Assembly: GCF_022045235.1 (NCBI RefSeq)
Contig: NW_027266264.1
Coordinates: forward strand, 24,738,001-24,802,000
Direction of reading: 5' to 3'
DNA length: 64,000 bases
DNA from: Haliotis cracherodii
Lineage: Eukaryota
Under the pieces are notes generated by a model, which saw only the letters and a program-made list of their open reading frames with translations, did not search any database and was not told where the DNA came from. This document shows, piece by piece, positions 1,729 through 42,483 of the stretch. Position 1 is the stretch's first letter. Every line of letters begins with the position of its first letter. The translations under genes and the position numbers were made by a program.

Positions 1729-4700
1729 GTAACATGCTGTACATGGCCAGACGCACCATCAGTTTAATATCAGATAGGTAGGAATATAAAGGATATTACG
1801 GTTTGAGTGCACTCCGTAACTATGGAAGAACTGCAATTTATACACCAGACATATGGCACATTTAGATCATAGCTTCAATATTAGGTGACTTACGCATTCT
1901 ACAAAAGGCCTGAGTCCCTATATTTTATACGGACAATAACTTATATTTCATTTATTCTACCATAAAACAACTTGATTGTTAATTGTATGTGTGTATTTTT
2001 CGATATTAGTAGATTAGTTCACTTGTACATTAACTGTTGATACGCCAAGTGATAGAGACAACCGTACATAACATAGCATGAGAAAGAGTACATTGTGGTA
2101 AATACCCGCGGGTAATCTCACGTAAATACCGTCTCATGCAAATATTGTCTATCATTTGGTTAAGCATTTATTGCATTGAAATTATACAGTGCCGTATAGA
2201 ATGCCGTAAATGTAAATGTTAACAGTTCCTGTATGAAATGCCTTAGTCAGAATAACATAAAATACTTCCCAGTCCTTTACTATACACAAATTGCTTTTTG
2301 TTCCGTATTTATTAGAACAATTTTGTTCAGAAGCGTTCCAAACAGTCGCTATCAATTCATGTATGGTTGTCAATTTTAAATTTAATGTTATAATTCATTG
2401 ACTGCATCTTTCTTGTAATGTATTATTGTTTGAATGTATTGCTCTATATGAAATTTCACTCTGCCATGAATAAAGACTTGAAGGGACTCAGCGGCCTTCT
2501 CTCTGTTTCAAGGTGATAGCCGAGTAATCAGCTCTACCAAGCTACTCTCCACTATCTTGGCCATTGTGATCTTAGCAACGATCCAACCAAACTACGTCAT
2601 GTTTATGAATCACTATAAATAATAGTGACACCAGCTGTTAGCATTCAGGTACAAACATGTAATAATGACATGCAGTGTGTATATGTCGCCAAAATACATT
2701 TTGTAAACTAAATCATGCACATGGCATATATGCCCATACTTGTCCTTGACACAAATATTTAGTAATATGAAAACACAAAGTATTTTAAGCATGATAATGA
2801 ACATAAATAAGTTTTGTTTTTGAAATCTTCACCTTCATAATATGTAACATATTCAACCATTTCAAGTTCCTTTTGTAAATACGAATTTGCATATATACAG
2901 GGATATGTGTCAATTACCCTTCACGCCAGCCGTCATATACTGGAATATTGCTGAGTGCGGCGTAAAACAACATACCAACCAACCCTTCACGCCAAACGCA
3001 TTACCATATACGGGTCTTGTAAACAACAAAAAAGACGAATGCTCATTTCACAAATATGTACACAACACCTGTTCGAGCTGTAAAGAAATGTTAGGGGAGA
3101 CGTACGAGGAATTTATTAAATATGACATATTACTTACCTTGTTGATGTGATGGCTGATGCTTTACCATACAATGACATTTACACGGAGATTTCGCAACTC
3201 TTAACGCACTGCCACTAACTTTTTGAATGATAACTGGATGGAGGGTGCCGCCGGTTGAGCGGGGCATGCTGGTTCTTTTAAGAACACATGGTGTCACCAC
3301 TGATTTACAGTGATCATCTAAGATTTTTCATCACCATCGTGCTTTTCTACGCCCTTTAGAATCTGTTGCAGCAGATATTCGAGGCTGAATATTCTCTGGC
3401 GTTCTTTTAAAAGTTAATGATTATGTTTCTTAATTTAAAGATATCAATATAATGCATATGAAAGTTACTGTAGGTGCATTTGCTATATAGGTGTAGAATC
3501 GAATAAATGTTGGCGTTTCTCGAATGATGGACACTTATAAGAATCTCGTCGTGTTCACAGTCGGTAGGTTATCTTTCTTCACGTCCGCCATGTGTATCCC
3601 ATGTCTGCTGGTCTTTTGTACGCGTGACGGTTGTTTGTTTGCCACAATCTTGATTGGGATGCTTTTCTTCTTCACTGAGGTCACGCTGAAGGGGCCTGGT
3701 TTCGGTTCCACACATGGGTACAACGTGTGAAGCCCATTTAAGGTGTCTGAATATTGCTGTCCAGATATTGCTGGATTATTGCTGAAAGCGGCGTAAAACC
3801 ATACACATTCACTCTTCACTGTGGACGTCAAACCAAATTCAGGCATATCCAAATCCGAAGGAAAGAGGTATCCATGTGCAACATGGCCTTCGACCAGCAC
3901 TCTTGACAAGAGCCATATATGCCCGTGAATATTATTCTAATGCCTAGCTCAAAACGCAAGATTGTCTGGAAATATGGAAAACAAAAAGAGAAAATTGTGA
4001 CTGAACTTTGTGTGAATGACATGTAGGTCTAACTAAGTTACTTCAAAGAAGACGCAGTTACCTGGAACATGTTGAAAGAATAAAAAACAGGTAATTTTCA
4101 TACGTTTTTTAATTGTTGAAAGTTCATTGGGAATGACAAACATTGGGGTGGGCCTGGTAATGTTTAGGGTGAAAATGATATTTCATTATCATGACAAAAA
4201 TGTTTAAAATCTCAAGTCTATAATTACACTAATTACAATTAGATTCCATTGAAGACGATAGCTGGGAACATTACTGACTGACAAAGTACTTCTAATGAGA
4301 ACTCCATTAATTTTGAATACATTATGAAAGCACACAATTAATTAATTATTATATGACATCATTTTCTTAGCCACAAAATGTAAACACTACCTACATATTC
4401 AATATCTCATTTCCTAGTCATATTATCAAGACTAACAAACAACTAAACTGTAATAAGGGTATTATACCCCGGGTCTTTTGCGATTTTTCTGAAAATTTGT
4501 TCTGTTATTTCGCAGCACGCACGTGGAGAATGGGAAATCATTGGAATCTTTCTATCAAACTTAAGATCGTTGAAATACTAGTATACACTGTTATATCGTG
4601 AAGACGAATTCCTAGCTCTGCATCCGCAGACACAATGCGTTATCTCTGGTTCATAGTTGATACAGTGAGTATTGTTGGATCAACGTGCCCTTGCTAGAAG

Positions 4701-4968
4701 GTTTATAGCAGATTGTGATGAACATTTTCACATGCTCCAGCTACGCACGAAGGGAGATACGTTGCTGGATCAAGCAAATACACCACCAAACCACAAAGAC
4801 TAACAATAATTCATAATCCAATGAAGGAAGGACTTTCTTTACATTCACAGAAACTATTTGAAAAAGATAATCATTGAGTTTTGATCACGTGGTTACAATA
4901 CGGGTAATACCTGACAGTCAGGTGACTGCGAGTGGTTATATTTAGAAGTGACAGCCGTCAATAGCGCT

Positions 4969-5485
4969 CATCTTCCCGAGGCAAGGGAGTTAATTGACTA
5001 TAAAAGTCCAGTTTCCACCCTTGCCGAACTAGGCTGGTATTATGGAATAAGATTTTGGCTGGACTAACGAGTCTATGCTTAGTCCAATCAAAATCGCACC
5101 ATGAAATCGAAATCCTGTTTTTGAACTGTCGGGCAGATTTCGGTCGATTGCAGGATTTGCAAAACATGGGCAACGCCAACTCGTTGTCAACAGATATTTT
5201 CTCAATCTTTTCATGTTTTTAATCAAGGTGCTCACATAATTTAATGCACTTCACGATGTAAGACCCGTTTTATAACAACATAAATCTTGATTATCGATCA
5301 GATCGTCTAGACTGGGCGCCTCCATTTTGTTAGAAGCAAATGCAAGTGAAACGAGAGGTGAAATCTGATTGGTCCATAGGAGAGCCTTAGAAGGGACATA
5401 ACTCGTAATAGCCACTGGAGGCGCTACGATCGAGCCCAGGAGTTCCAGCCTAGTTCGGCAAGGGTGGAAACTGGACTTTTAAAGT
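4969..5485. mobile_element. Second member of the same MITE family, outer right TIR missing; duplicates at about 16840-17356 and 32359-32875
   Basis: Starts CATCTTCCCGAGGCAAGGGAGTTAATTGAC, is collinear with 1209-1728, and stops at GGAAACTGGACTTTTAAAGT. Confidence 0.85.
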
Positions 5486-5881
5486 AGAGATGATTATGGA
5501 AATGGTTTTGTTTATCAGTAAGTGGCGGGGAGAAGGATACAGTTAATAATCAAGTTCATTTTTATTCTAACTGACAACCAGGATATTAAACTATGATTAG
5601 GAAGGGGAACAATGGAGTAGGCTGGTAGGTGTTCATTATGACATCGAATTTCAAACGCAAGGAATATGACAAAATCTTGGCGTGTTCACATTGGATAGCT
5701 TATTTTTAATCATTTATGTTCACCATGTGTGCTCCACGTTTGTACGCGTGGCGGTTCTTAGTTTGTTGTTCTAGATATTTGACGGTGGCCTGTAAACATC
5801 GAGTCGATCAGACAAATCAGCAGTTGATGTCATGAGCGACATCCAGCACGGTGTAGGGAATGATGACATGCAATAAACCAA

Positions 5882-5944
5882 GTCGCCGAGCCTGACAACT
5901 CGAACCATTCCTTTTACAAGCATCGGTTATTCCATCGGATCTCT

Positions 5945-5976
<32 letters not shown>

Positions 5977-6038
5977 CGCCTAGCCTGACCACTCGACCCA
6001 TTCCTTTTACAAGCATCGGTTATTCCATCGGATCTCAT

Positions 6039-6078
<40 letters not shown>

Positions 6079-6162
6079 AAGATGTAGTAGTAGTCGCCGA
6101 GACTGACCACTCGACCCATTCCTTTTACAAGCATCGGTTATTCCATCGGAGCTCATGTAGTA

Positions 6163-6202
<40 letters not shown>
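5882..6202. repeat. Compound repeat: about 65-bp core plus (TAG)n, 3 units (1 unit at about 17799-17917)
   Basis: GTCGCCGAGCCTGACCACTCGACCCATTCCTTTTACAAGCATCGGTTATTCCATCGGATCTCAT(GTA)n repeated. Confidence 0.93.
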
Positions 6203-8706: not shown

Positions 8707-11336
8707 ATGGCGGCGGCTAGTGCCACTGCAGGCAACAACTACCAGTCATCGACTGGGTTGTTAATCGTAACCTATGTTGGTGACGTCACAAAGGCACAAG
8801 CAGATGGCATTGTTGTCAGCGAGGGGAAATCATTTCGGGGAATGGGATATGTTGCAACAACTCTTGTTAGTGTGGACTCAGAATTCTACAAAAATCGCAA
8901 CAAGCTGATTCAGAAAGAAAAAGCCCATTTCACACCATGGAGGGTGTACACAACTGGGAGTTGCATCAAGTTCGTATCGGTGTTTCATGCTATTGTCATA
9001 CCCCAGGGAGAGAAACAACCAATCCAGGAGTGGCAGGGGAATATGACCTCATTATACAAGAAAATACTCCAAAAAGCTGAGAAGGAGGGTATCTCTATCC
9101 TGGCGGTACCTTTACTAGGCTCTGGTAAGACAATAATCTGAGACGTATGGGGATGTGGTGATATGTTTCTATGTGTTTATCCTAAATGCCCGTCTCGACC
9201 CATGACCGACATGTCACATCTCAATATATATTAATTTGATCTCGTTCAACATTTCAATATCCCCAAATATGCTTGTCTTAAGTGGCATGTGTGTTTAAGG
9301 TACCATTAATCAATTTTCGATTTGACTGGGGGCGGTCGGGTAGCCTAGTGGTTAAAACATTCGCTCGTCACGCCGAAGACCCGTGTTCGATTCCCGACAT
9401 GGGTACAATGTGTGACGCCCATTTCTGGTGTCACCCACTGTGATATAGCTGGAATATTGCTAAAAGCGGCGTAAATCATACTCACTCACTCACTCGATTT
9501 CGACTGTAACATAAGCCTGGTTGAATATGAATCGCTGTCAAATTGCGATGGTGCCAGTTGCTCCTAAATGCTGAAGTGATCTGTCCCTTAAAACTAAAAC
9601 TCTCCACGCTACAGTCATGCGTCTGTATACATTTGCAGGAAAGGTGATTGCGCTTTCCATGTTAGGTTGCACATCATGTATTGTGCGGGGGCACGGGTGG
9701 CCCAGTCGTCAAAGCCACCGCAATTCGTTGTGCAGAGTTGCGTTTCTTGGATACCCCAGAACTATGATTGTTGTTTCGAATCCCGGCTCACCCCGCTTAT
9801 GTTTCTGGGTTTGTCTGCACCATTGCCATGCTCGTGGGTTTCTCAGAAGTGGTAAACGTCTGTGAACTGCATCACTACGGGCTTTCCTCCCACATTAAGC
9901 TGACTAGCCATGATATAACTGGAATACTGTTAAAAGCGGCGTTAAACCCAACACATAAATAATTAATAAATCAACAAGGTTTGTTTTCCTTTCTAAAAGC
10001 AATAACTATGACTTTTGGATGCGAATGTAACTGTACATGCATTTTATGGGCAACAGTATGCATATGTTAAGTAACCTGCGTATCCTATGCATACATGAGT
10101 GTAGCAACACTGAGAACTGGAGATTTTTGTGATGTTTATTTGTTGTTTAACGCCACACTCAGCACTATTCCAGCTATATGACGGTGGTCTGTAAATATTT
10201 GAGTCTGGACCAGACAATCTAGTGATTGACATCATGAGCGTCGATCCACGCAATTGGGATCGATGACATGCATTAACCAAGTCACCGAACCTGACCGGAT
10301 GGATCCCGTTAGTCTTACGACAAGCATAGTCGCCTTTACGGTTTTGTGATGTAGATACTTTTTGTAAACTAAACGTTTGTTTGACTAAAGCCAAAGCCTC
10401 TGAATTGTCTAATCGTTTTTCCCAGGTAAATGCAAGGTAAAACCAGCAGACGCTGTTGAGGTGGCAGTCCGTGCTATGTTCTCTTATAAGAGAAAGTCTC
10501 TCGTCAAGGTACTGCTCGTGTCAGACAGGGAGGACATTGTGGACCAGCTGGCTACTATGTGTGCTTACAACAGCAGTGTGACAGGTGGAAAACCCCTTTA
10601 TCAAAGACCTCCACCAAACATTAAAACGGAACGCCCGCTTCCACAACCCCCGTCTTCAAACGCGAAAGAAAAATCTAAACTTGGTGGAGGGAGCGATAAC
10701 AGTTGTTCAAGCCTGAAGAGAAAGAATGGAGACAGATCAGAGAGAACACATGAGAATGTGGTGAAACAAATGAGACTTGCTCCTCAAAGACGTAATTATG
10801 AAGAGGAAGATGGGGATGAAATTAATGATGATGATGATGAGGAGGAGGACACATCAGAACAAGAAAATACTGGGAGACATGTTGCTGGTAGAATAGGAAA
10901 CCAGGTACAACCTAGAAGAGAACTTGCAACAACCTCAACTGAGAGTGCGACAGGTGCGATATTTTACACATTTATCAAACGTTTCTTTTAATTAGAAAGA
11001 TAACGTGTCATTAAATGTTCATACATAATATGTTAATACACATTTGTTTCAGTTTCTGCGCACATACCTCGACCATCATCCCCAGAGGATGAAATGAAGG
11101 AACAACTCTCCTGCCCGGTGTGTTTAGATCTGTTCACTGACCCGGTCATACTGCAGCCCTGTTGCCACTCTTTGTGCAGTAAGTGTGCGGAAACCATCCG
11201 ATCCCAACAAAGCTCCTTCAAATGTCCTATATGTCAGGCTGTTGTCCAGAATGGCCCACTTCAGAGGAATTTTCACTTGGAAGGCACGGTGAGTATCTAC
11301 AGACGACAGCGGAAGATAAGCAACAGTATGAACTAG
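8707..11336 (+). CDS. Gene A: macrodomain - short acidic linker - TRIM-like RING-HC (C3HC4) putative E3 ligase, 409 aa, 3 coding exons (8707-9124, 10426-10953, 11053-11336)
   Basis: Exon 1 has macro motifs YVGDVTKAQADGIVV...FHAIV...SILAVPLLGSG and ends at a phase-1 donor TCTG|GTAAGA. Acceptor TTTTTCCCAG|GT at 10426 restores G-K-C-K-V-K-P-A-D-A-V-E-V-A-V-R-A-M...VKVLLVS (macro C-terminal helix/strand). Phase-1 donor ACAG|GTGCGA at 10953 joins acceptor TTTGTTTCAG|TT at 11053 in frame with CPVC-x12-CCHSLCSKC-x12-CPIC, stop TAG at 11336. All phases are consistent. Confidence 0.85.
9329..9493 (+). mobile_element. tRNA-derived SINE, family 1, (CACT)n tail, in gene A intron 1
   Basis: Box A TAGCCTAGTGG, box B GTTCGATTCC, tail GCTGGAATATTGCTAAAAGCGGCGTAAA(CACT)n; TSD TCGATTT(C)GACTG; empty site in gene B at 21074-21086. 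Confidence 0.9.
9687..9953 (+). mobile_element. tRNA(Leu/Ser-like)-derived SINE, family 2; orthologous copies at 21252-21528 and 37942-38214
   Basis: Head GGGGGCACGGGTGGCCCAGTCGTC..AAG...TTCGAATCCCGG, central GTGGGTTT...GGGCTTTCCTCCCAC, tail CTGGAATACTGTTAAAAGCGGCGTTAAACCCAAC. Confidence 0.8.
10133..10342 (-). mobile_element. SINE family 3, antisense in intron 1; orthologous copies at about 21680-21900 and 38395-38603; other - copies at about 40972-41210, 46188-46352 and 52702-52810
   Basis: TTTGTTGTTTAACGCCACACTCAGCACTATTCCAGC...GGACCAGACAATC...CAAGCATAGTCGCCTTT is the reverse complement of family 3. Confidence 0.85.
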
Positions 11337-13234
11337 TGTTGGCAAATGTTGGTGTGACTGGAAAGGTTATAAGATAAGACTTAATAGGAATAGGCTTGGA
11401 TTGGAATGAATTTCAGTCGACACATACAAATATTACAATGGTGTGTCATATACTTGATATACGAATACAATAATACTTGTTCATTATTTTACATTGAGTA
11501 AAGACGCCTGTCTACATGTTATACATATATTTGTGTGTTTGTATTTGTGAATCATGTAAACTGCCGGGTAAAAGAAAGTTTATAAAAATGAATTTGACCA
11601 AAGAATTACAACGTTATCAAAACGTTACTAGGCTGAAAGCAGTGTCCGAAACACTGCAAACTTAAGGTCGAAAACACAAATATGATACCCATATAAAAAA
11701 AACCCATCACCATCGAATAAGCAATTCTTGCTTGTTTTATTTTTAGCCACCATCAAACATGGGTGTATACTTTCTTTTGTCTGCTAGTATATATTGGTTG
11801 GTTACATTAGCTTGTGTACTTCAATAACGCAATAGTAATGCAAAGCAACACTGCAGAATACAGATTACAGTGCACACTTTGAATAATGTGAATGCAGTGT
11901 TGCTTTTGATTAATCATATTTACATGACTTTATTTAAGACACTGTATACCAGTATATGGTTACTTTTATCATATAATGGGCAGGTTTCTCGCCAGGAAAT
12001 GTCAACGAATAAAAAAGATATCCAGATAGAGATGCAAATATCAAAGGTCAAGCAGGGACTACTTTCTGTGTTTAGTAACAAAAATGGCGATCGATTCAGA
12101 ATTAACCATCGGGAATCTGGAGAAACTACTGGGATAGTTGCTATCATTATCAAAAGAATAGTTTAATATACTGAAACTAAGTATAATTTTGACGTACCTA
12201 AGTTTTGGCAACTTTGGAGATATACATTGCAAAACAATTTAGCGAGGACACTACATATATTGTCAAGCTAAGGCTCGCTAAATACAATGTTTATTCCTAA
12301 TACAAGATATTTACACTCCCCAAACACACTCGCGTGATAACCTCTATGTACCAAATTACCGTCAGTATAGTGACTTTTTCTATTCACTTTTCTGATTCTT
12401 GCTGCACATCATGTATACACATCATGCAACAACCAGGCATTGTTGGGAATATAGTGATCAGCATGTCCCTCTGTCCATCTAACTTTTAAGTTGTGTTAGA
12501 TAGCCTATGATGTAATAAGCATGTTTTTAATTAAATTTAAAAAAACACAAATTAGAGATGCTATTTATTATTTAACTTATATTCAACATTGTAAGTTGAA
12601 CTTTATATCTGGTCATAAAGTACACACATGACTCACAGCACTTTACACACGCTGTACATGAATTGATGAATTCTCATTTCAAAGTTCTCAAGCGAGCAGA
12701 ATGTATTTTTTTCATCACTTTTTAGTACATTAAGAAAATGTTTGACGCGAGCTTCATTTAGTCTCAGTAAGTTATACATGTAGAACTTTCTCCAATGTAC
12801 ATCTGTATATCATTTGATTATTAAGGGTAGTGACCAGTTTTTCTGTCATCTGGGAGATCTCACATATCATTGAGTGTTTAAACCATTGGTGTAACATGTG
12901 GCTTTTACTGCATTGATTGTATATATTGTACATAAAGCGTCGAACCCCTTTCCATGGTCATAAGAAATCTCTGTTGTGAACAGAGTCAATTGTGCGATCC
13001 CGAGCGTTTCATGGGCATGTGTTTGTCATAGTTCTAAAATCACTATAATTAATCCATACTTATAGTGGTCATATTTCAATAATGCGTTTTGTATTTTTCT
13101 CAATATTTTATCTTACAACTAAGCCAAACCTATATGTATTTCTGTAGATAATGTCAGTCAGTTGCCGTCCATGACTCTGGATACCTAACTCAGTCAGCTG
13201 GCACAGCTAGGGTTGTGCCCCAGGCTGTAACACG

Positions 13235-13754
13235 CATCTTCCGGAGGCAAGAGAGTTAACTGACTATAAAAGTCACGTTTCCATTCTTGCCGAACTGGGC
13301 TGGTATTATGGAGTTAGAATTTGGCTGGACTAACGAATCTGTGCATAGTCCAATCCAAATCCGGTTCGTAAAGTGTCATGCATATTTCGGTCGATTGCAG
13401 GACTTGCAAAGCGTGTGCACCGCCGACTCGTTGTCAACAGATATTTAACTAATCTTTTTCATGTTAACAATCATGGTGCTCACGTAATTTGATGCACTTC
13501 GCGATGTAAGACCCGTTTGATCACAATATAGATCTTGATTATCGACCAGAACGTCTTGCCTTGGCGCCGCCATTTTCTTTGAAGCCAATGCAAGTGAAAC
13601 GAGAGGTGGAATCTGATTAGCCCATAGGGTAGGCCTAGAAGGGACGTAACTCCCACTGGTGGCTCTACGATCGACCGCAGGAATTCCAGCCTAGTTCGGC
13701 AAGGGTGGAAACTGGACTTTTGAAGTCAGTTAACTCTCTTGCCTCGGGAAGATG
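13235..13754. mobile_element. MITE (duplicate of 1209-1728)
   Basis: Same TIRs and TSD at offset 12026. Confidence 0.9.
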
Positions 13755-16700
13755 GTAACATGCTGTACATGGCCAGACGCACCATCAGTTTAATATCAGA
13801 TAGGTAGGAATATAAAGGATATTACGGTTTGAGTGCACTCCGTAACTATGGAAGAACTGCAATTTATACACCAGACATATGGCACATTTAGATCATAGCT
13901 TCAATATTAGGTGACTTACGCATTCTACAGAAGGCCTGAGTCCCTATATTTTATACGGACAATAACTTATATTTCATTTATTCTACCATAAAACAACTTG
14001 ATTGTTAATTGTATGTGTGTATTTTTCGATATTAGTAGATTAGTTCACTTGTACATTAACTGTTGATACGCCAAGTGATAGAGACAACCGTACATAACAT
14101 AGCATGAGAAAGAGTACATTGTGGTAAATACCCGCGGGTAATCTCACGTAAATACCGTCTCATGCAAATATTGTCTATCATTTGGTTAAGCATTTATTGC
14201 ATTGAAATTATACAGTGCCGTATAGAATGCCGTAAATGTAAATGTTAACAGTTCCTGTATGAAATGCCTTAGTCAGAATAACATAAAATACTTCCCAGTC
14301 CTTTACTATACACAAATTGCTTTTTGTTCCGTATTTATTAGAACAATCTTGTTCAGAAGCGTTCCAAACAGTCGTTATCAATTCATGTATGGTTGTCAAT
14401 TTTAAATTTAATGTTATAATTCATTGACTGCATCTTTCTTGTAATGTATTATTGTTTGAATGTATTGCTCTATATGAAATTTCACTCTGCCATGAATAAA
14501 GACTTCAAGGGACTCAGCGGCCTTCTCTCTGTTTCAAGGTGATAGCCGAGTAATCAGCTCTACCAAGCTACTCTCCACTATCTTGGCCATTGTGATCTTA
14601 GCAACGATCCAACCAAACTACGTCATGTTTATGAATCACTATAAATAATAGTGACACCAGCTGTTAGCATTCAGGTACAAACATGTAATGATGACATGCA
14701 GTGTGTATATGTCGCCAAAATACATTTTGTAAACTAAATCATGCACATGGCATATATGCCCATACTTGTCCTTGACACAAATATTTAGTAATATGAAAAC
14801 ACAAAGTATTTTAAGCAAGATAATGAACATAAATAAGTTTTGTTTTTGAAATCTTCATCTTCATAATATGTAACATATTCAACCATTTCAAGTTCCTTTT
14901 GTAAATACGAATTTGCATATATACAGGGATATGTGTCAATTACCCTTCACGCCAGCCGTCATATACTGGAATATTGCTGAGTGCGGCGTAAAACAACATA
15001 CCAACCAACCCTTCACGCCAAACGCATTACCATATACGGGTCTTGTAAACAACAAAAAAGACGAATGCTCATTTCACAAATATGTACACAACACCTGTTC
15101 GAGCTGTAAAGAAATGTTAGGGGAGACGTACGAGGAATTTATTAAATATGACATATTACTTACCTTGTTGACGTGATGGCTGATGCTTTACCATACAATG
15201 ACGTTTACACGGAGATTTCGCAACTCTTAACGCACTGCCACTAACTTTTTGAATGATAACTGGATGGAGGGTGCCGCCGGTTGAGCGGGGCATGCTGGTT
15301 CTTTTAAGAACACGTGGTGTCATCACTGATTTACAGTGATCATCTAAGATTTTTCATCACCATCGTGCTTTTCTACGCCCTTTAGAATCTGTTGCAGCAG
15401 ATATTCGAGGCTGAATATTCTCTGGCGTTCTTTTAAAAGTTAATGATTATGTTTCTTAATTTAAAGATATCAATATAATGCATATGAAAGTTACTGTAGG
15501 TGCATTTGCTATATAGGTGTAGAATCGAATAAATGTGGGCGTTTCTCGAATGATGGACACTTATAAGACTGAATCTCGTCGTGTTCACAGTCGGTAGGTT
15601 ACCGTTCTTCATGTCCGCCATGTGTATCCCATGTCTGCTGGTCTTTTGTACGCGTGACGGTTGTTTGTTTGCCACAATCTTGATTGGGATGCTTTTCTTC
15701 TTCACTGAGGTCACTCTGAAGGGGCCTGGGTTCGGTTCCACACATGGGTACAACGTGTGAAGCCCATTTAAGGTGTCTGAATATTGCTGTCCAGATATTG
15801 CTGGATTATTGCTGAAAGCGGCGTAAAACCATACACATTCACTCTTCACTGAGGACGTCAAACCAAATTCAGGCATATCCAAATCCGAAGGAAAGAGGTA
15901 TCCATGCGCAACATGGCCTTCGACCAGCACTCTTGACAAGTGCCATATATGCCCGTGAATATTATTCTAATGCCTAGCTCAAAACGCAAGATTGTCTGGA
16001 AATATTGAAAACAAAAAGAGAAAATTGTGACTGACCTTTGTGTGAATGACATGTAGGTCTAACTAAGATACTTCAAAGAAGACGCAGTTACCTGAAAGAA
16101 AGAATAAAAAACAGGTAATTTTCACACGTTTTTTAATTGTTGAAAGTTCATTGGGAATGACAAACATTGGGGTGGGCCTGGTAATGTTTAGGGTGAAAAT
16201 GATATTTCATTATCATGACAAAAATGTTTAAAATCTCAAGTCTATAATTACACTAATTACAATTAGATTCCATTGCAGACGATAGCTGGGAACATTACTG
16301 ACTGACAAAGTACTTCTAATGAGAACTCCATTAATTTTGAATACATTATGAAAGCACACAACTGTAATAAGGGTATTTTACACCGGGTCTTTTGGGATTT
16401 TTCTGAAAATTTGTTCTGTTATTTCGCAGCACGCACGTGGAGAATGGGAAATCATTAGAATCTTTCTATCAAACTTAAGATCGTTGAAATACTAGTATAC
16501 ACTGTTATATCGTGAAGACGAATTTCTAGCTCTGCATCCGCAGACACAATGCGCTATCTCTAGTTCATAGTTGATACAGTGAGTATTGTTGCATCAACGT
16601 GCCCTTGCTAGAAGGTTTATAGCAGATTGTGATGAACATTTTCACATGCTCCAGCTACGCACGAAGGGAGATACGTTGCTGGGTCAAGCAAATGAAGGAA

Positions 16701-20406: not shown

Positions 20407-23400
20407 ATGGCGGCGGCTAGTGCCACTGTAGGCAACAACTACCAGTCATCGACTGGGTTGTTAATCGTAACCTATGTTGGTGACGTCACAAAGGCACAAG
20501 CAGATGGCATTGTTGTCAGCGAGGGGGAATCATTTCGGGGAATGGGATATGTTGCATCAACTCTTGTAAGTATGGACTTAGAATTCGACACGAATCGCAA
20601 CAACCTGATTCAGAAAGAAAAAGCCAATTTCACACCATGGAGGGTGTACACAACTGGGAGTTGCATCAAGTTCGTATCGGTGTTTCATGCTATTGTCATA
20701 CCCCGGGGAGAGAAAGAACCAATCCAGGAGTGGAAGGGGAAAATGGCCTCATTATACAAGAAAATACTCCAAGAAGCTGAGAAGGAGGGTACCTCTATCC
20801 TGGCGGTACCTTTACTAGGGTCTGGTAAGACATTAATCTGAAAAGTACAATGTAAAGGGATGTGGTGATATGTTTCAATATGTTTATTCTAAATGACCGT
20901 CTCGATCAATGACCGACATGTCACGTCTCCATATTTGTGAAATTTGGTCTTGTTCAGCATTTAAATATCCCCAAATATGCTCGTCTAAAGTCTAAAGTGT
21001 TTAGGGTAAATATTACAGACAAAACCCTTTCCTTAATCTTAAGAAAAATATCTTTTAAAAGATTAATTATTGTTCGATTTCGACTGTATCATAAGCATGT
21101 GTTGAAGATGGATCACTGTCAAAGGTGCTCCTAAAAGTTTAAATGATCTGTCCCTAGAAGCTAAAGTTCACCACGCCAGTCATGCATCTGTATACATTTG
21201 TAGGAAAGGTGATTGCGCTTTCCATTTTAGGTTGCACTTCATGTATTGTGCGGGGGCACGCGTGGCCCAGTTGCCTAAGGCGCCGCAATTCGTTGTGCAG
21301 AGTTGCGTCCCTTGGATACCCCAGCAATATGATTGTGGGTTCGAATCCCGGATCGCCCCGGTGATGTTTCTAATTTTGTCCGCACCATACCTGTGCTCGT
21401 GGGTTTCACCGGAGTGGTAAACGTCTGAGGCCTGCATCACTTCGGGCTTTCCTCACACATTAAGCTGACACTCCGCGATATACCTGGAATACTGCTAAAA
21501 GCTGCGTTAAACCCAACATACCCACTCATGTTTTGTGCAGCCAACTTACTAAATCAACTAGGTTTGTTTTTCTTTCTAAAACCAATAACTATGACTTTGG
21601 ATGCGAATGTAACTGTACATGCATTTTATGGGCAACAGTATGAGAGCAGCAACACTCAGAATTGGAGATATTTGTGATGTTTATTTGTTTGTTTGTTGTT
21701 AACGCCACACTCAGCACTATTCCAGCTATGTGACGGAGGTCTGTAAATATCGCTTCTGGACCAGACAATCCAGCGCTTGACGTCATGAGCATCGATCCAC
21801 ACAGTTGGGATACGGTGACGTGCATCAACCAAGTCAGCCAGCCTGACCACATCGTTCCTGTTAGTCGTCTCATACCACAAGCATAATCGCCTTTTACGGC
21901 GATGTGATGTACACGTTTTTTAAAAAAGTAAACTTTTATTTTTAACTAAAGCCAAAACCGCTGATTTTTTCTAATCGTTTATTCAGGTAAAGGCAAGGTA
22001 AAACCAGCAGACGCTGTTGAGGTGGCAGTCCGTGCTATGTTCTCTTATAAGAGAAAGTCTCTCGTCAAGGTACTGCTCGTGTCAGATAGAGAGGACATTG
22101 TGGACCAGCTGGCTACTCAGTGTGCCTACAACAGCAGTGTGAAAGGTGGACAACCCCTTTTGTCAAACACTAAAACAGGACGCCAGCTTCCTCGACCCTC
22201 ATCTTCAATCGCAAAATCAAAATCAAGACTTGGTGGAGGGACCGATAGCAGTTGTTCAAGCCTGAAGAGACAGAATGGAGACAGATCAGATTCCTGCAGA
22301 AACAGCGATAACGATGGCACATGTGGCGGTGGAATGGTGCTCCGTAGTGGACGACAACTACCGCCACGCCCTCAAAGTAAGGGTCAGCCATCATGTCCCA
22401 AAGGATATGGTATAGGAAAGATAACTACCACGAACAGAAATCCATCATCTGGCGGTAGACCCGACTCAAGAGCAAGCCACAGTGGCAGTGGGAACAGTCA
22501 GGTCGAACGTGAGTATAGTCACAGAGAAAGAAGAACATTGTATGACCAGGATGTCCAGAAGGAGAATCTGAAGACGAGACCAGAGAGAACACTGGGCGGT
22601 GGGAACAGTCATGTCGAAACTGGGGACAGCCACACAGAGAGAATAACATTGTATGACCAGGATGTCCAGGAGGAGAATCTGAAGACGAGACCAGAGAGAA
22701 CACTGGGCGGTGGGAACAGTCATGTCGGAACTGGGGACAGCCACAGAGAGAGAATAACATTGTATGACCAGGATGTCCAGGAGGAGAATCTGAAGACGAG
22801 ACCAGAGAGAACACTGGGCGGTGGGAACAGTCATGTCGAAACTGGGGACAGCCACAGAGAGAGAAGAACATTGTATGACCAGGATGTCCAGAAGGAGAAT
22901 CTGAAGACGAGACCAGAGAGAACACTGGGCGGTGGGAACAGTCATGTCGGAAGTGGGGACAGCCACAGAGAGAGAATAACATTGTATGACCAGGATGTCC
23001 AGGAGGAGAATCTGAAGACGAGACCAGAGAGAACACTGGGCGGTAGGAACAGTCATGTCGGAAGTGAGCACAGTCACAGAGAGAGAAGAACATTGTATGA
23101 CCAGGATGTCCAGAAGGAGAATCTGAAGACGAGACCAGAGAGAACACTGGGCGGTGGGAACAGTCATGTCGGAAGTGGGGACAGCCACAGAGAGAGAATA
23201 ACATTGTATGACCAGGATGTCCAGGAGGAGAATCTGAAGACGAGACCAGAGAGAACACTGGGCGGTGGGAACAGTCATGTCGAAAGTGAGCACAGTCACA
23301 GAGAGAGAAGAACATTGTATGACCAGGATGTCCAGAAGGAGAATCTGAAGACGAGACCAGAGAGAACACTGGGCGGTGGGAACAGTCATGTCGGAAGTGG

Positions 23401-26168
23401 GGACAGCCACAGAGAGAGAATAACATTGTATGACCAGGATGTCCAGGAGGAGAATCTGAAGACGAGACCAGAGAGAACACTGGGCGGTGGGAACAGTCAT
23501 GTCGAAAGTGAGCACAGTCACAGAGAGAGAAGAACATTGTATGACCAGGATGTCCAGAAGGAGAATCTGAAGACGAGACCAGAGAGAACACTGGGCGGTG
23601 GGAACAGTCATGTCGGAAGTGGGGACAGCCACAGAGAGAGAATAACATTGTATGACCAGGATGTCCAGGAGGAGAATCTGAAGACGAGACCAGAGAGAAC
23701 ACTGGGCGGTGGGAACAGTCATGTCGAAAGTGAGCACAGTCACAGAGAGAGAAGAACATTGTATGACCAGGATGTCCAGAAGGAGAATCTGAAGACGAGA
23801 CCAGAGAGAACACTGGGCGGTGGGAACAGTCATGTCGAAAGTGAGCACAGTCACAGAGAGAGAAGAACATTGTATGACCAGGATGTCCAGAAGGAGAATC
23901 TGAAGACGAGACCAGAGAGAACACTGGGCGGTGGGAACAGTCATGTCGGAAGTGGGGACAGCCACAGAGAGAGAATAACATTGTATGACCAGGATGTCCA
24001 GGAGGAGAATCTGAAGACGAGACCAGAGAGAACACTGGGCGGTAGGAACAGTCATGTCGAAAGTGAGCACAGTCACAGAGAGAGAAGAACATTGTATGAC
24101 CAGGATGTCCAGAAGGAGAATCTGAAGACGAGACCAGAGAGAACACTGGGCGGTGGGAACAGTCATGTCGAACGTGAGTATAGTCACAGAGAAAGAAGAA
24201 CATTGTATGACCAGGATGTCCAGAAGGAAAATCTGAAGACGAGACCAGAGAGAACACTGGGCGGTGGGAACAGTCATGTCGGAAGTGGGGACAGCCACAG
24301 AGAGAGAATAACATTGTATGACCAGGATGTCCAGGAGGAGAATCTGAAGACGAGACCAGAGAGAACACTGGGCGGTAGGAACAGTCATGTCGAAAGTGAG
24401 CACAGTCACAGAGAGAGAAGAACATTGTATGACCAGGATGTCCAGAAGGAGAATCTGAAGACGAGACCAGAGAGAACACTGGGCGGTGGGAACAGTCATG
24501 TCGGAAGTGGGGACAGCCACAGAGAGAGAATAACATTGTATGACCAGGATGTCCAGGAGGAGAATCTGAAGACGAGACCAGAGAGAACACTGGGCGGTGG
24601 GAACAGTCATGTCGAAAGTGAGCACAGTCACAGAGAGAGAAGAACATTGTATGACCAGGATGTCCAGAAGGAGAATCTGAAGACGAGACCAGAGAGAACA
24701 CTGGGCGGTGGGAACAGTCATGTCGGAAGTGGGGACAGCCACAGAGAGAGAATAACATTGTATGACCAGGATGTCCAGGAGGAGAATCTGAAGACGAGAC
24801 CAGAGAGAACACTGGGCGGTGGGAACAGTCATGTCGAAAGTGAGCACAGTCACAGAGAGAGAAGAACATTGTATGACCAGGATGTCCAGAAGGAGAATCT
24901 GAAGACGAGACCAGAGAGAACACTGGGCGGTGGGAACAGTCATGTCGGAAGTGGGGACAGCCACAGAGAGAGAATAACATTGTATGACCAGGATGTCCAG
25001 GAGGAGAATCTGAAGACGAGACCAGAGAGAACACTGGGCGGTGGGAACAGTCATGTCGAAAGTGAGCACAGTCACAGAGAGAGAAGAACATTGTATGACC
25101 AGGATGTCCAGAAGGAGAATCTGAAGACGAGACCAGAGAGAACACTGGGCGGTGGGAACAGTCATGTCGAAAGTGAGCACAGTCACAGAGAGAGAAGAAC
25201 ATTGTATGACCAGGATGTCCAGAAGGAGAATCTGAAGACGAGACCAGAGAGAACACTGGGCGGTGGGAACAGTCATGTCGGAAGTGGGGACAGCCACAGA
25301 GAGAGAATAACATTGTATGACCAGGATGTCCAGGAGGAGAATCTGAAGACGAGACCAGAGAGAACACTGGGCGGTAGGAACAGTCATGTCGAAAGTGAGC
25401 ACAGTCACAGAGAGAGAAGAACATTGTATGACCAGGATGTCCAGAAGGAGAATCTGAAGACGAGACCAGAGAGAACACTGGGCGGTGGGAACAGTCATGT
25501 CGAACGTGAGTATAGTCACAGAGAAAGAAGAACATTGTATGACCAGGATGTCCAGAAGGAAAATCTGAAGACGAGACCAGAGAGAACACTGGGCGGTGGG
25601 AACAGTCATGTCGGAAGTGGGGACAGCCACAGAGAGAGAATAACATTGTATGACCAGGATGTCCAGGAGGAGAATCTGAAGACGAGACCAGAGAGAACAC
25701 TGGGCAGTGGGAACAGTCATGTCGAAAGTGAGCACAGTCACAGAGAGAGAAGAACATTGTATGACCAGGATGTCCAGAAGGAGAATCTGAAGACGAGACC
25801 AGAGAGAACACTGGGCGGTGGGAACAGTCATGTCGAAAGTGGGGACAGCCACAGAGAGAGAACATTGTATGACCAGTGTGACGCCCAGGAGGAGGAACAT
25901 GATCTGAAGACGAGACCAGGGAGAACACGGAACAGTGAACTGAAGAGGGACAATAGGCAAGCTGGTAAGGCGTATTACGAGACTGAAATGGGTGGACATG
26001 ATGAACCAATAGCACTGCAACACCGCTGTGTTATCAGTGGCGAGGTCATACCAAAGATAAAAAACAAGGCACAACATAACGATAAGGATGGTGATGAGAA
26101 TGTGGTGAAACAAAAGAGACTTGCTCCTCAAAAACGTATTTATGAAGAGGAAGATGATGATGAAATTA

Positions 26169-26208
<40 letters not shown>

Positions 26209-26710
26209 GGAGGAGGAGGAGGACACATCAGAACAAGAAAATACTGGGAGACATGTTGGTGGTAGAATAGAAAACATGGAACAACCTAAAAGAGAACTTG
26301 CAACAACCTCAACTGAGAGTGCGACAGGTGCGATATTTTACACATTTATCAAACGTTTCTTTTAATTAGAAAGATAACGTGTCATTAAATGTTCATACAT
26401 AATATGTTAATACACATTTGTTTCAGTTTCTGCTCACATACCTCGACCATCATCCCCAGAGGATGAAATGAAGGAACAACTCTCCTGCCCGGTGTGTTTA
26501 GATCTGTTCACTGACCCGGTCATACTGCAGCCCTGTTGCCACTCTTTGTGCAGTGAGTGTGCGGAAACCATCCGATCCCCAAAAAGCTCCTTCAAATGTC
26601 CTATGTGTCTGGCTGTTGTCCAGAATGGCCCACTTCAGAGGAATTTTCACTTGGAAGGCACGGTGAGTATCTACAAACGACAGCGGAAGATAAGCAACAG
26701 TATGAACTAG
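20407..26710 (+). CDS. Gene B: macrodomain - about 31 x 37-aa tandem repeat - poly-D/E - TRIM-like RING-HC, 1680 aa, 3 coding exons (20407-20824, 21987-26327, 26427-26710)
   Basis: Same splice sites and phases as gene A (TCTG|GTAAGA at 20824; ATTCAG|GT at 21987; ACAG|GTGCGA at 26327; TTTCAG|TT at 26427). The 4.3-kb exon 2 is open (ORF 22022-26365). RING reads CPVCLDLFTDPVILQPCCHSLCSEC...CPMC. Confidence 0.85.
22499..25930 (+). repeat. Coding minisatellite, 111 bp (37 aa) x about 31, in gene B exon 2
   Basis: TTGTATGACCAG recurs every 111 bp from 22538 to 25865; unit HV(E/G)S(EH/GD)SHRER(R/I)TLYDQDVQ(K/E)ENLKTRPERTLGGGNS. Confidence 0.98.
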
Positions 26711-28610
26711 TGTTGGCAAATGTTGGTTTGACTGGAAAGGTTATAAGATAAGACTTAATAGGAATAGGCGTGGATTGGAATGAATTTCAGTCGACACATA
26801 CAAATACTACAATGGTGTGTCATATACTTGATATACGAATACAATAATACTTGTTCATTATTTTACATTGAGTAAAGACGCCTGTCTACATATTAAACAT
26901 ATATTTGTGTGTTTGTATATGTGAATTATGTAAACTGCCGGGTAAAAGAAAGTTTATAAAAATGAATTTGACCAAAGAATTACAAAATCAAAACGTTACT
27001 AGGCTGAAAGCAGTGTCCGAAACACTGCAAACCTAAGGTCGAAAACACAAATATGATACCCGTATATAGAAAAACAACAACATCACCATCGAATAAGCAA
27101 TTCTTGCTTGTTTTATTTTTAGCCACCATCAAACATGGGTGTATACTTTCTTTTGTCTGCTAGTATATATTGGTTGGTTACATTAGCTTGTGTACTTCAA
27201 TAACGCAATAGTAATGCAAAGCAACACTGCAGAATACAGATTACAGAGCACACTTTGAATAATGTGAATGCAGTGTTGCTTTTGATTAATTATATTTACA
27301 TGACTTTATTTAAGACACTGTATACCAGTATATGGTTACTTTTATCATATAATGGGCAGGTTTCTCGCCAGGAAATGTCAACGAATAAAAACGATATCCA
27401 GATAGAGATGCAAATATCAAAGGTCAAGCAGGGACTACTTTCTGTGTTTAGTAACAAACATGGCGATCGATTCAGAATTAACCATCGGGAATCTGGAGAA
27501 ACTACTGGGATAGTTGCTATCATTATCAAAAGAATAGTTTAATATACTGAAACTAAGTATAATTTTGACGTACCTAAGTTTTGGCAACTTTGGAGATATA
27601 CATTGCGAAACAATTTAGCGAGGACACTACATATATTGTCAAGCTAAGGCTCGCTAAATACAATGTTTATTCCTAATACAAGATATTTACACTCCCCAAA
27701 CACACTCGCGTGATAACCTCTATGTACCAAATTACCGTCAGTATAGTGACTTTTTCTATTCACTTTTCTGATTCTTGCTGCACATCATGTATAGACATCA
27801 TGCAACAACCAGGCATTGTTGGGAATATAGTGATCAGCATGTCCCTCTGTCCATCTAACTTTTAAGTTGTTTTAGATAGCCTAAGATGTAATAAGCATGT
27901 TTTTAATTAGATTTAACAAAACAAAACTTAGAGATGCTATTTATTATTTAACTTATATTCAACATTGTAAGTTGAACTTTATATCTGGTCATAAAGTACA
28001 CACATGACTCACAGCACTTTACACACGCTGTACATAAATTGATTAATGCTCATTTCAAAGTTCTCAAGCGAGCAGAATGTATTTTTTTCATCACTTTTTA
28101 GTACATTAAGAAAATGTTTGACGCGAGCTTCATTTAGTCTCAGTAAGTTATACATGTAGAACTTTCTCCAATGTACATCTGTATATCATTTGATTATTAA
28201 GGGCAGTGACCAGTTTTTCTGTCATCTGGGAGATCTCACATATCCTTGAGTGTTTAACCCATTGGTGTAACATGTAGCCTTTACTGCATTGATTGTTTAT
28301 ATTGTACATAAAGCGACGAACCCCTTTCCATGGTCATAAGAAATCTCTGTTGTGAACAGAGTCCATTGTGCGATCCCGAGCGTTTCATGGGCATGTGTTT
28401 GTCATAGTTCTAAAATCACTATAATTAATCCATACTTATAGTGGTCATATTTCAATAATGCGTTTTGTATTTTTCTCAATATTTTATCTTACAACTAAGC
28501 CAAACCTATATGTATTTCTGTAGATAATGTCAGTCAGTTGCCGTCCATGACTCTGGATACCTAACTCAGTCAGCTGGCACAGCTAGGGTTGTGCCCCAGG
28601 CTGTAACACG

Positions 28611-29130
28611 CATCTTCCGGAGGCAAGAGAGTTAACTGACTATAAAAGTCACGTTTCCATTCTTGCCGAACTGGGCTGGTATTATGGAGTTAGAATTTGG
28701 CTGGACTAACGAATCTGTGCATAGTCCAATCCAAATCCGGTTCGTAAAGTGTCATGCATATTTCGGTCGATTGCAGGACTTGCAAAGCGTGTGCACCGCC
28801 GACTCGTTGTCAACAGATATTTAACTAATCTTTTTCATGTTAACAATCATGGTGCTCACGTAATTTGATGCACTTCGCGATGTAAGACCCGTTTGATCAC
28901 AATATAGATCTTGATTATCGACCAGAACGTCTTGCCTTGGCGCCGCCATTTTCTTTGAAGCCAATGCAAGTGAAACGAGAGGTGGAATCTGATTAGCCCA
29001 TAGGGTAGGCCTAGAAGGGACGTAACTCCCACTGGTGGCGCTACGATCGACCGCAGGAATTCCAGCCTAGTTCGGCAAGGGTGGAAACTGGACTTTTGAA
29101 GTCAGTTAACTCTCTTGCCTCGGGAAGATG
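28611..29130. mobile_element. MITE (duplicate of 1209-1728)
   Basis: Same TIRs and TSD at offset 27402. Confidence 0.9.
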
Positions 29131-32100
29131 GTAACATGCTGTACATGGCCAGACGCACCATCAGTTTAATATCAGATAGGTAGGAATATAAAGGATATTA
29201 CGGTTTGAGTGCACTCCGTAACTATGGAAGAACTGCAATTTATACACCAGACATATGGCACATTTAGATCATAGCTTCAATATTAGGTGACTTACGCATT
29301 CTACAAAAGGCCTGAGTCCCTATATTTTATACGGACAATAACTTATATTTCATTTATTCTACCATAAAACAACTTGATTGTTAATTGTATGTGTGTATTT
29401 TTCGATATTAGTAGATTAGTTCACTTGTACATTAACTGTTGATACGCCAAGTGATAGAGACAACCGTACATAACATAGCATGAGAAAGAGTACATTGTGG
29501 TAAATACCCGCGGGTAATCTCACGTAAATACCGTCTCATGCAAATATTGTCTATCATTTGGTTAAGCATTTATTGCATTGAAATTATACAGTGCCGTATA
29601 GAATGCCGTAAATGTAAATGTTAACAGTTCCTGTATGAAATGCCTTAGTCAGAATAACATAAAATACTTCCCAGTCCTTTACTATACACAAATTGCTTTT
29701 TGTTCCGTATTTATTAGAACAATTTTGTTCAGAAGCGTTCCAAACAGTCGCTATCAATTCATGTATGGTTGTCAATTTTAAATTTAATGTTATAATTCAT
29801 TGACTGCATCTTTCTTGTAATGTATTATTGTTTGAATGTATTGCTCTATATGAAATTTCACTCTGCCATGAATAAAGACTTGAAGGGACTCAGCGGCCTT
29901 CTCTCTGTTTCAAGGTGATAGCCGAGTAATCAGCTCTACCAAGCTACTCTCCACTATCTTGGCCATTGTGATCTTAGCAACGATCCAACCAAACTACGTC
30001 ATGTTTATGAATCACTATAAATAATAGTGACACCAGCTGTTAGCATTCAGGTACAAACATGTAATAATGACATGCAGTGTGTATATGTCGCCAAAATACA
30101 TTTTGTAAACTAAATCATGCACATGGCATATATGCCCATACTTGTCCTTGACACAAATATTTAGTAATATGAAAACACAAAGTATTTTAAGCATGATAAT
30201 GAACATAAATAAGTTTTGTTTTTGAAATCTTCATCTTCATAATATGTAACATATTCAACCATTTCAAGTTCCTTTTGTAAATACGAATTTGCATATATAC
30301 AGGGATATGTGTCAATTACCCTTCACGCCAGCCGTCATATACTGGAATATTGCTGAGTGCGGCGTAAAACAACATACCAACCAACCCTTCACGCCAAACG
30401 CATTACCATATACGGGTCTTGTAAACAACAAAAAAGACGAATGCTCATTTCACAAATATGTACACAACACCTGTTCGAGCTGTAAAGAAATGTTAGGGGA
30501 GACGTACGAGGAATTTATTAAATATGACATATTACTTACCTTGTTGATGTGATGGCTGATGCTTTACCATACAATGACATTTACACGGAGATTTCGCAAC
30601 TCTTAACGCACTGCCACTAACTTTTTGAATGATAACTGGATGGAGGGTGCCGCCGGTTGAGCGGGGCATGCTGGTTCTTTTAAGAACACATGGTGTCACC
30701 ACTGATTTACAGTGATCATCTAAGATTTTTCATCACCATCGTGCTTTTCTACGCCCTTTAGAATCTGTTGCAGCAGATATTCGAGGCTGAATATTCTCTG
30801 GCGTTCTTTTAAAAGTTAATGATTATGTTTCTTAATTTAAAGATATCAATATAATGCATATGAAAGTTACTGTAGGTGCATTTGCTATATAGGTGTAGAA
30901 TCGAATAAATGTTGGCGTTTCTCGAATGATGGACACTTATAAGAATCTCGTCGTGTTCACAGTCGGTAGGTTATCTTTCTTCACGTCCGCCATGTGTATC
31001 CCATGTCTGCTGGTCTTTTGTACGCGTGACGGTTGTTTGTTTGCCACAATCTTGATTGGGATGCTTTTCTTCTTCACTGAGGTCACGCTGAAGGGGCCTG
31101 GTTTCGGTTCCACACATGGGTACAACGTGTGAAGCCCATTTAAGGTGTCTGAATATTGCTGTCCAGATATTGCTGGATTATTGCTGAAAGCGGCGTAAAA
31201 CCATACACATTCACTCTTCACTGTGGACGTCAAACCAAATTCAGGCATATCCAAATCCGAAGGAAAGAGGTATCCATGTGCAACATGGCCTTCGACCAGC
31301 ACTCTTGACAAGAGCCATATATGCCCGTGAATATTATTCTAATGCCTAGCTCAAAACGCAAGATTGTCTGGAAATATGGAAAACAAAAAGAGAAAATTGT
31401 GACTGAACTTTGTGTGAATGACATGTAGGTCTAACTAAGTTACTTCAAAGAAGACGCAGTTACCTGGAACATGTTGAAAGAATAAAAAACAGGTAATTTT
31501 CATACGTTTTTTAATTGTTGAAAGTTCATTGGGAATGACAAACATTGGGGTGGGCCTGGTAATGTTTAGGGTGAAAATGATATTTCATTATCATGACAAA
31601 AATGTTTAAAATCTCAAGTCTATAATTACACTAATTACAATTAGATTCCATTGAAGACGATAGCTGGGAACATTACTGACTGACAAAGTACTTCTAATGA
31701 GAACTCCATTAATTTTGAATACATTATGAAAGCACACAATTAATTAATTATTATATGACATCATTTTCTTAGCCACAAAATGTAAACACTACCTACATAT
31801 TCAATATCTCATTTCCTAGTCATATTATCAAGACTAACAAACAACTAAACTGTAATAAGGGTATTATACCCCGGGTCTTTTGCGATTTTTCTGAAAATTT
31901 GTTCTGTTATTTCGCAGCACGCACGTGGAGAATGGGAAATCATTGGAATCTTTCTATCAAACTTAAGATCGTTGAAATACTAGTATACACTGTTATATCG
32001 TGAAGACGAATTCCTAGCTCTGCATCCGCAGACACAATGCGTTATCTCTGGTTCATAGTTGATACAGTGAGTATTGTTGGATCAACGTGCCCTTGCTAGA

Positions 32101-33271
32101 AGGTTTATAGCAGATTGTGATGAACATTTTCACATGCTCCAGCTACGCACGAAGGGAGATCAAGCAAATACACCACCAAACCACAAAGACTAACAATAAT
32201 TCATAATCCAATGAAGGAAGGACTTTCTTTACATTCACAGAAACTATTTGAAAAAGATAATCATTGAGTTTTGATCACGTGGTTACAATACGGGTAATAC
32301 CTGACAGTCAGGTGACTGCGAGTGGTTATATTTAGAAGTGACAGCCGTCAATAGCGCTCATCTTCCCGAGGCAAGGGAGTTAATTGACTATAAAAGTCCA
32401 GTTTCCACCCTTGCCGAACTAGGCTGGTATTATGGAATAAGATTTTGGCTGGACTAACGAGTCTATGCTTAGTCCAATCAAAATCGCACCATGAAATCGA
32501 AATCCTGTTTTTGAACTGTCGGGCAGATTTCGGTCGATTGCAGGATTTGCAAAACATGGGCAACGCCAACTCGTTGTCAACAGATATTTTCTCAATCTTT
32601 TCATGTTTTTAATCAAGGTGCTCACATAATTTAATGCACTTCACGATGTAAGACCCGTTTTATAACAACATAAATCTTGATTATCGATCAGATCGTCTAG
32701 ACTGGGCGCCTCCATTTTGTTTGAAGCAAATGCAAGTGAAACGAGAGGTGAAATCTGATTGGTCCATAGGAGAGCCTTAGAAGGGACATAACTCTTAATA
32801 GCCACTGGAGGCGCTACGATCGAGCCCAGGAGTTCCAGCCTAGTTCGGCAAGGGTGGAAACTGGACTTTTAAAGTAGAGATGATTATGGAAATGGTTTTG
32901 TTTATCAGTAAGTGGCGGGGAGAAGGATACAGTTAATAATCAAGTTCATTTTTATTCTAACTGACAACCAGGATATTAAACTATGATTAGGAAGGGGAAC
33001 AATGGAGTAGGCTGGTAGGTGTTCATTATGACATCGAATTTCAAACGCAAGGAATATGACAAAATCTTGGCGTGTTCACATTGGATAGCTTATTTTTAAT
33101 CATTTATGTTCACCATGTGTGCTCCACGTTTGTACGCGTGGCGGTTCTTAGTTTGTTGTTCTAGATATTTGACGGTGGCCTGTAAACATCGAGTCGATCA
33201 GACAAATCAGCAGTTGATGTCATGAGCGACATCCAGCACGGTGTAGGGAATGATGACATGCAATAAACCAA

Positions 33272-33334
33272 GTCGCCGAGCCTGACAACTCGAACCATTC
33301 CTTTTACAAGCATCGGTTATTCCATCGGATCTCT

Positions 33335-33366
<32 letters not shown>

Positions 33367-33428
33367 CGCCTAGCCTGACCACTCGACCCATTCCTTTTAC
33401 AAGCATCGGTTATTCCATCGGATCTCAT

Positions 33429-33478
<50 letters not shown>

Positions 33479-33543
33479 CGCCGAGCCTGACCACTCGACC
33501 CATTCCTTTTACAAGCATCGGTTATTCCATCGGATCTCATGTG

Positions 33544-33587
<44 letters not shown>

Positions 33588-36918: not shown

Positions 36919-42353
<5,435 letters not shown>

Positions 42354-42483
42354 AAGCAGACAGGAATGTCCCTGTGCTATTGTAGCATCAAAATATATGT
42401 ATACTTACTGATTGTAGAACGTACCGGAGCAATTACATCAAGTGCAGGATAATGCAGGTCTCTTGCTGTGTTCGTTCAGATTA

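Follow-up and report, generated by a model that had tools for sequence, protein, structure and literature searches.

The window considered here is a stretch of 64,000 nucleotides (G000:C1:24738001-24802000) of the 1.18-Gb genome of the abalone Haliotis cracherodii, to which flanks of 60 kb were added on each side. Within it, macrodomain ligase genes form a tandem cluster, and two of them, designated B and C, encode a short motif similar to the peptides with which LANA of KSHV and IL-33 dock on the acidic patch of the nucleosome. The question raised by this locus is whether the motif tethers a ubiquitin ligase to chromatin, as the original prediction proposed for B and C, or is a look-alike within a linker.

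The ligase cluster and its domains

Copies of the gene were located by tblastn: X and Z are upstream of the window, A, B, C, and D are within it, and E and F are downstream. The models of A, B, and C were built by coordinates, and all three genes are on the plus strand. Gene A (8707..11336; exons 8707-9124, 10426-10953, and 11053-11336) encodes a protein of 409 residues that comprises a macrodomain, a short linker lacking the motif, and a TRIM-type RING, and that has the same sequence as the database protein P0008. Gene B (20407..26710; exons 20407-20824, 21987-26327, and 26427-26710) encodes 1680 residues comprising a macrodomain, a linker that includes the motif and a repeat, and a TRIM-type C3HC4 RING, with no DTC domain. 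Gene C (36919..42354; exons 36919-37336, 38687-40497, 41534-41751, and 42275-42354) encodes 841 residues comprising a macrodomain, a linker with the motif, and a Deltex RING-DTC. It corresponds to the database protein P0001, except that P0001 (805 residues) lacks roughly one 111-bp unit of the repeat, which the genome carries in frame; this omission, at 39169-39425, is likely to be a false intron. A contig that joins 37335 to 38686 spans intron 1 of gene C, and the motif is covered by contigs in three of four runs, the RNA status of the runs being a guess in both cases.

Gene D (50182-64000) has macrodomain exons (50182 and 57419) and DTC exons (61645 and 62614) with no RING match and is either a Macro-DTC gene without a RING or a broken gene. 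Paralogue E, just downstream of the window (65654-69447 on the window scale, minus strand), duplicates F in inverted orientation; exon 2 of E is spread over two frames and ends after the RING. Z, A, B, and C are separated by spacers (1-6202, 12027-16361, and 27403-33586) that share 98-99% identity, and the duplications are accordingly recent or homogenised. The 5' end of gene A looks like that of C, and its 3' end looks like that of B. An extra exon is present 3' of the RING at 27354-27542 and 11978-12166, and the H. rufescens protein P0003 uses it as an alternative C terminus.

Among A, B, C, and Z, only C has a DTC domain. Pfam RING and DTC domains were found in gene C, and no DTC match follows the RING exons of A and B. 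The DTC of gene C matches that of human DTX3L (E 6e-49) and retains a His and a Glu aligned with H707 and E733 of DTX3L, with an inferred numbering offset that depends on the length of DTX3L. In a fold search, the RING-DTC of gene C matches DTX1/2. The two DTX3L residues are treated in PMC10810221. In A, B, and Z, the final exon (11053-11336 in A and 26427-26710 in B) encodes a TRIM-type RING that is 56% identical to the RING exon of a TRIM-like gene about 50 Mb away (G000:C1:75071660), which points to exon shuffling as the likely origin of the macrodomain-RING fusion in these genes. An analogy with DTX3L had been drawn for both B and C; it holds for C, with its RING-DTC, but not for B, which lacks a DTC and has a TRIM-type RING at its end.

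The macrodomain has a fold similar to those of macroH2A1.1 and PARP14 macro 1 (TM 0.84-0.87 in a fold search). The GDV/T adenine motif is present, and the NAAN asparagine and the glycine loop, which are features of typical ADP-ribose pockets, are missing or altered. The pocket looks degenerate, which leaves the reading of ADP-ribose by this macrodomain unsure.

The motif within the linker

Translation in frame confirms GMVLRSGR as residues 255-262 of gene B (22331..22354, plus strand), with its predicted arginine anchor at 22343-22345 (plus strand), and GMLLRSGR as residues 256-263 of gene C (39034..39057, plus strand). Both octamers are encoded in exon 2 of their genes and lie about 60 residues C-terminal of the macrodomain. 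Their proposed location in a disordered linker agrees with an AlphaFold2 prediction for P0001 based on a 26-sequence alignment, in which the macrodomain (residues ~7-195, pLDDT ~95) and the RING-DTC are folded and residues 199-613, including the motif, have a pLDDT below 50 nearly throughout, with a value of ~38 around the motif itself. The DNA around the motif is almost identical in B and C, and the two copies therefore constitute one observation rather than two.

By composition, the expectation of MxLRSG in the linker is 1.7e-4. Across the genome, a scan with a loose DNA pattern gave 1301 matches, as compared with 997 for a control. Fourteen strict MxLRSG sites other than those in the cluster were chosen by eye from the first 100 among the matches listed for contig C1; 13 of these are in frames of 70 codons or fewer, and the remaining one is in a 184-codon frame whose product looks extracellular. 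The caution, voiced at the outset, that short motifs can arise by chance is thus well founded: the genome does contain chance MxLRSG strings, so the motif alone is weak evidence. An origin from a transposon or from other abalone genes finds no support in the 14 sites examined on this contig among the matches listed.

Searches of protein databases recovered six different proteins, each of them from Haliotis, and a search among shorter proteins and fragments found no further species. The C-type motif is GMLLRSGR in P0001, GMVLRSGQ in H. rufescens, GMVLRSGR in H. asinina, and GLVLRSGR in H. rubra. LRSG is therefore invariant in all four C-type proteins (H. cracherodii, H. rufescens, H. asinina, and H. 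rubra), the four species amounting to about two independent lineages. Of the 187 gap-free linker columns in these proteins, 64 (34%) are invariant, and for four invariant columns out of four at a place named beforehand this gives a P of 0.014 if columns are independent. The linker of P0001 is identical to that of H. asinina at 114 of 289 positions and to that of H. rubra at 99 of 204, below the identities of the macrodomain (~69%) and the RING region (80%). The linker has, however, three invariant runs of four columns, of which the motif is one, and 6 of 10 columns are invariant in the motif island as compared with 7 of 10 in a second, ten-residue island. Two other islands, in the region of 39683-39790 and about 40150, are as conserved as the motif in the four species: this ten-residue stretch, just upstream of 39683, and LSIS.

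In H. rubra (P0009), whose C-type model stops early in the DTC, Leu occupies the Met position, and a linker deletion begins a few residues after the motif, which remains. The last Arg is replaced by Gln in the H. rufescens C-type protein and in a contig of the organism coded B, which also has a synonymous change; the contig of the organism coded D differs by a synonymous change only. P0003, the B-type protein of H. rufescens, has Cys in place of the anchor Arg, and the case is therefore weaker for gene B than for gene C. An in-frame deletion of 21 nt removes GGGMVLR in the organism coded C (one contig, depth 6.5, gene copy not assigned); contigs drop variants, so this organism may also have an intact copy. 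For conservation of the motif in orthologues against a divergent linker, the evidence is of modest strength and mixed: LRSG is retained in four of four proteins, but other islands match it, and the anchor is lost in P0003 and in one contig.

The motif is absent from gene A, in which 8 nt stand, in frame, in place of 680 nt present in C (39003-39682) and 3803 nt present in B. At the junction (10724..10763, plus strand) the flanks are joined by an 8-nt match to the repeat unit (microhomology). Both A and Z have 224 codons fewer than C, a loss that takes in the greater part of the linker along with the motif and the repeat. The same junction is found in H. rufescens P0004 and appears as a loose end in three of three contig runs of other organisms, and the deletion is therefore an old one, with no specificity for the motif. 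The absence of the motif from A and the in-frame deletion are as originally described, but what was lost is 224 linker codons rather than the motif in particular.

In gene B, the motif is followed by a tandem repeat of 30.6 x 111 bp (37 residues), in frame (22484..25876, plus strand), that is of mixed charge and slightly acidic (K+R 16.8%, D+E 19.1%). Gene C has 2.3 copies, and the H. asinina and H. rubra proteins lack the repeat, which in B has expanded locally. The long charged repeat after the motif is real, but its likeness to LANA is superficial, and a LANA-like role was rejected because the repeat is not conserved.

Outside the subfamily, LRSG is present in 0 of 147 RING-DTC proteins from the best 150 profile-search matches, as compared with 1.9 expected from shuffles, and exon 2 of the paralogues X, E, and F has no motif. 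A motif common to the whole family was rejected on these grounds. Residues 682-689 of P0054, a multi-macrodomain RING-DTC protein, are HRMMTRSK and resemble the IE1 anchor, the count of such strings being at chance level. In a tree of macrodomains, which excludes the RING and the linker and leaves out P0003 for want of exon 1, A, B, C, and Z form one group (98/98) with the proteins of H. rufescens, H. asinina, and H. rubra, and the branching inside it gives no order for the duplications. The simplest reading of these sequences is that the motif was gained once, in a subfamily ancestor that had a DTC, and was lost later in RING-only duplicates. The RING-only genes A, Z, and B would then be derived copies in which the anchor is repeatedly lost, so that the motif of gene B may be a relic.

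The same observations can be read as those of a chance look-alike, a neutral Ser/Gly/Arg-rich stretch of linker that was inherited by the duplicates and has not eroded within one genus. The equal conservation of other islands, the three separate losses or anchor changes, the chance strings elsewhere in the genome, and the absence of the motif from all 147 other RING-DTC proteins are consistent with such an origin. We nevertheless consider it unlikely, given the low expectation by composition together with the invariant core, the survival of the motif beside the linker deletion of H. rubra, and the confinement of all gene-assignable losses to RING-only duplicates.

Predicted docking and proposed function

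A complex was predicted for a 32-residue peptide of gene B with H2A and H2B of the same genome, in which the acidic-patch residues are intact. The prediction was made without the histone and peptide alignments that had been built. It gave a score of 0.69, whereas the best of three controls, which took in no scrambled or Arg-mutant peptide, gave 0.01. The score mark is reached by 51 of 78 solved pairs and 2 of 108 mismatched pairs, peptides being outside this calibration; on eukaryotes the corresponding numbers are 39 of 65 for solved pairs that have no similar complex and 2 of 126 for unrelated ones. The runs share at least 57% of contacts, and the partner pLDDT is at least 56. In the predicted complex, the Arg contacts residues 61 and 92 of H2A and 102/103/106 of H2B (the H2B contacts fall within 102-110), the Met contacts H2A 56, 57, and 60, and the Ser contacts H2A 64; D90 is absent from the listed contacts. 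The Arg would thus insert between H2A E61 and E92, the Met would pack on E56/Y57, and the Ser would contact E64, in the manner of LANA. These contacts match the arrangement of LANA on H2A-H2B as given in PMC9040877.

The modelling that had been suggested as a check on H2A-H2B therefore yields a LANA-like pose, which possibly reflects memory of the LANA structure. The LANA complex is already solved, so the docking result may show likeness and not binding, and may be recall of the LANA-nucleosome complex (1ZLA). An in silico screen reports that acidic-patch anchors share no general motif and that raw placements of arginine are numerous (10.1101/2024.06.26.600687). We regard it as reasonably probable that the motif binds nucleosomes. 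That it is an acidic-patch anchor which arose in one abalone Macro-RING-DTC lineage and tethers the ligase to chromatin is, in our judgement, evenly balanced. None of these observations concerns viral chromatin, which had been named beside host chromatin as a possible site. The motif is likely to be functional in C, and its function in B is doubtful.

Conservation is silent on the identity of the partner, and a conserved linear motif could instead be phosphorylated, serve as an import signal, or bind to DNA, to poly(ADP-ribose), or to some other acidic protein. Val or Leu in place of the basic R7 of LANA and the lack of a classical nuclear localization signal in C would fit such a role. The conserved M/L, L, R, S, and G are, however, the residues of the published MXLRSG consensus, and the predicted pose is LANA-like; a partner other than the nucleosome appears quite improbable.

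If the motif is an acidic-patch anchor, the tether would hold the gene C protein on nucleosomes, the macrodomain would read ADP-ribosylated chromatin, and the RING-DTC would ubiquitylate histones or ADP-ribose nearby. Gene C would then unite in one chain what mammals divide between PARP9 and DTX3L. The weak points of this mechanism are nuclear entry, as a sequence search of the gene C protein found no classical NLS (K[KR]x[KR]), and the degenerate-looking ADP-ribose pocket.

Binding to the acidic patch could also serve to park the ligase, which would be kept inactive on chromatin until damage or infection, as in the case of IL-33, with the untethered duplicates acting freely. According to PMC6092330, chromatin binding limits the release of IL-33 and leaves transcription unaltered, and the repeated loss of the anchor in duplicates would be compatible with this role. 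DTX3L, however, has the histone substrates H4 and H2B (10.64898/2026.04.23.720386), so targeting is a simpler use of the anchor than parking, which we consider very unlikely.

In a wider proposal, an anchor of the LANA/IL-33 type would have evolved convergently in an ADP-ribose-reading Deltex, giving a single-chain, chromatin-tethered equivalent of PARP9-DTX3L, and the cluster would then have diversified by switching the anchor on or off and swapping the RING, giving chromatin-bound and free immune ligases that are possibly in conflict with nuclear DNA viruses using the same patch. This is put forward as a speculation that is rather unlikely. A genuine case of the motif in a mollusc ligase would mean that a host can evolve a LANA/IL-33-type anchor anew within one genus, and it would suggest how, where PARP9 is missing from an animal, histones come within reach of a Deltex ligase. 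The cluster provides natural variants with the anchor (C and B) and without it (A, Z, and P0003) for a direct test.

Comparison with known systems

The literature found, most subscription papers being outside its scope, ties MXLRSG to LANA and IL-33 only and, within the same limits, includes no report of the motif in a Deltex or a mollusc protein. Both this class of motif and the Macro-RING-DTC architecture are known, and their combination is absent from the literature so covered. The abalone motif shares the M-x-L-R-S-G consensus and the flanking G and R with KSHV LANA (PDB 1ZLA) and IL-33; the published consensus leaves x free. The predicted contacts with H2A E56/Y57/E61/E64/E92 are like those of LANA. 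In LANA, R7 bridges to H2B E110, whereas all abalone copies have Val or Leu at this position and no basic residue. Unlike LANA, the abalone motif is internal, is situated in the linker of a host E3 ligase, and is not accompanied by a viral DNA-binding domain, and its binding is predicted only.

With DTX3L and the invertebrate Macro-RING-DTC ligases, gene C shares the DTC, the RING-DTC fold, and the macrodomain. According to bioRxiv 10.64898/2026.04.23.720386, macrodomain-bearing DTX3L is present in species without PARP9. Gene C differs from DTX3L-type ligases in having no detected RRM/KH region and in having the motif that is missing from the 147 other RING-DTC representatives; A, B, and Z differ from them in lacking the DTC. 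RNF168, RING1B, and SHPRH are reported to be RING ligases that are placed on nucleosomes via the acidic patch, as is proposed here for the abalone ligase. In contrast to these, the putative abalone anchor is a LANA-type hexapeptide that is at least ~350 residues from the RING and lies beside the macrodomain.
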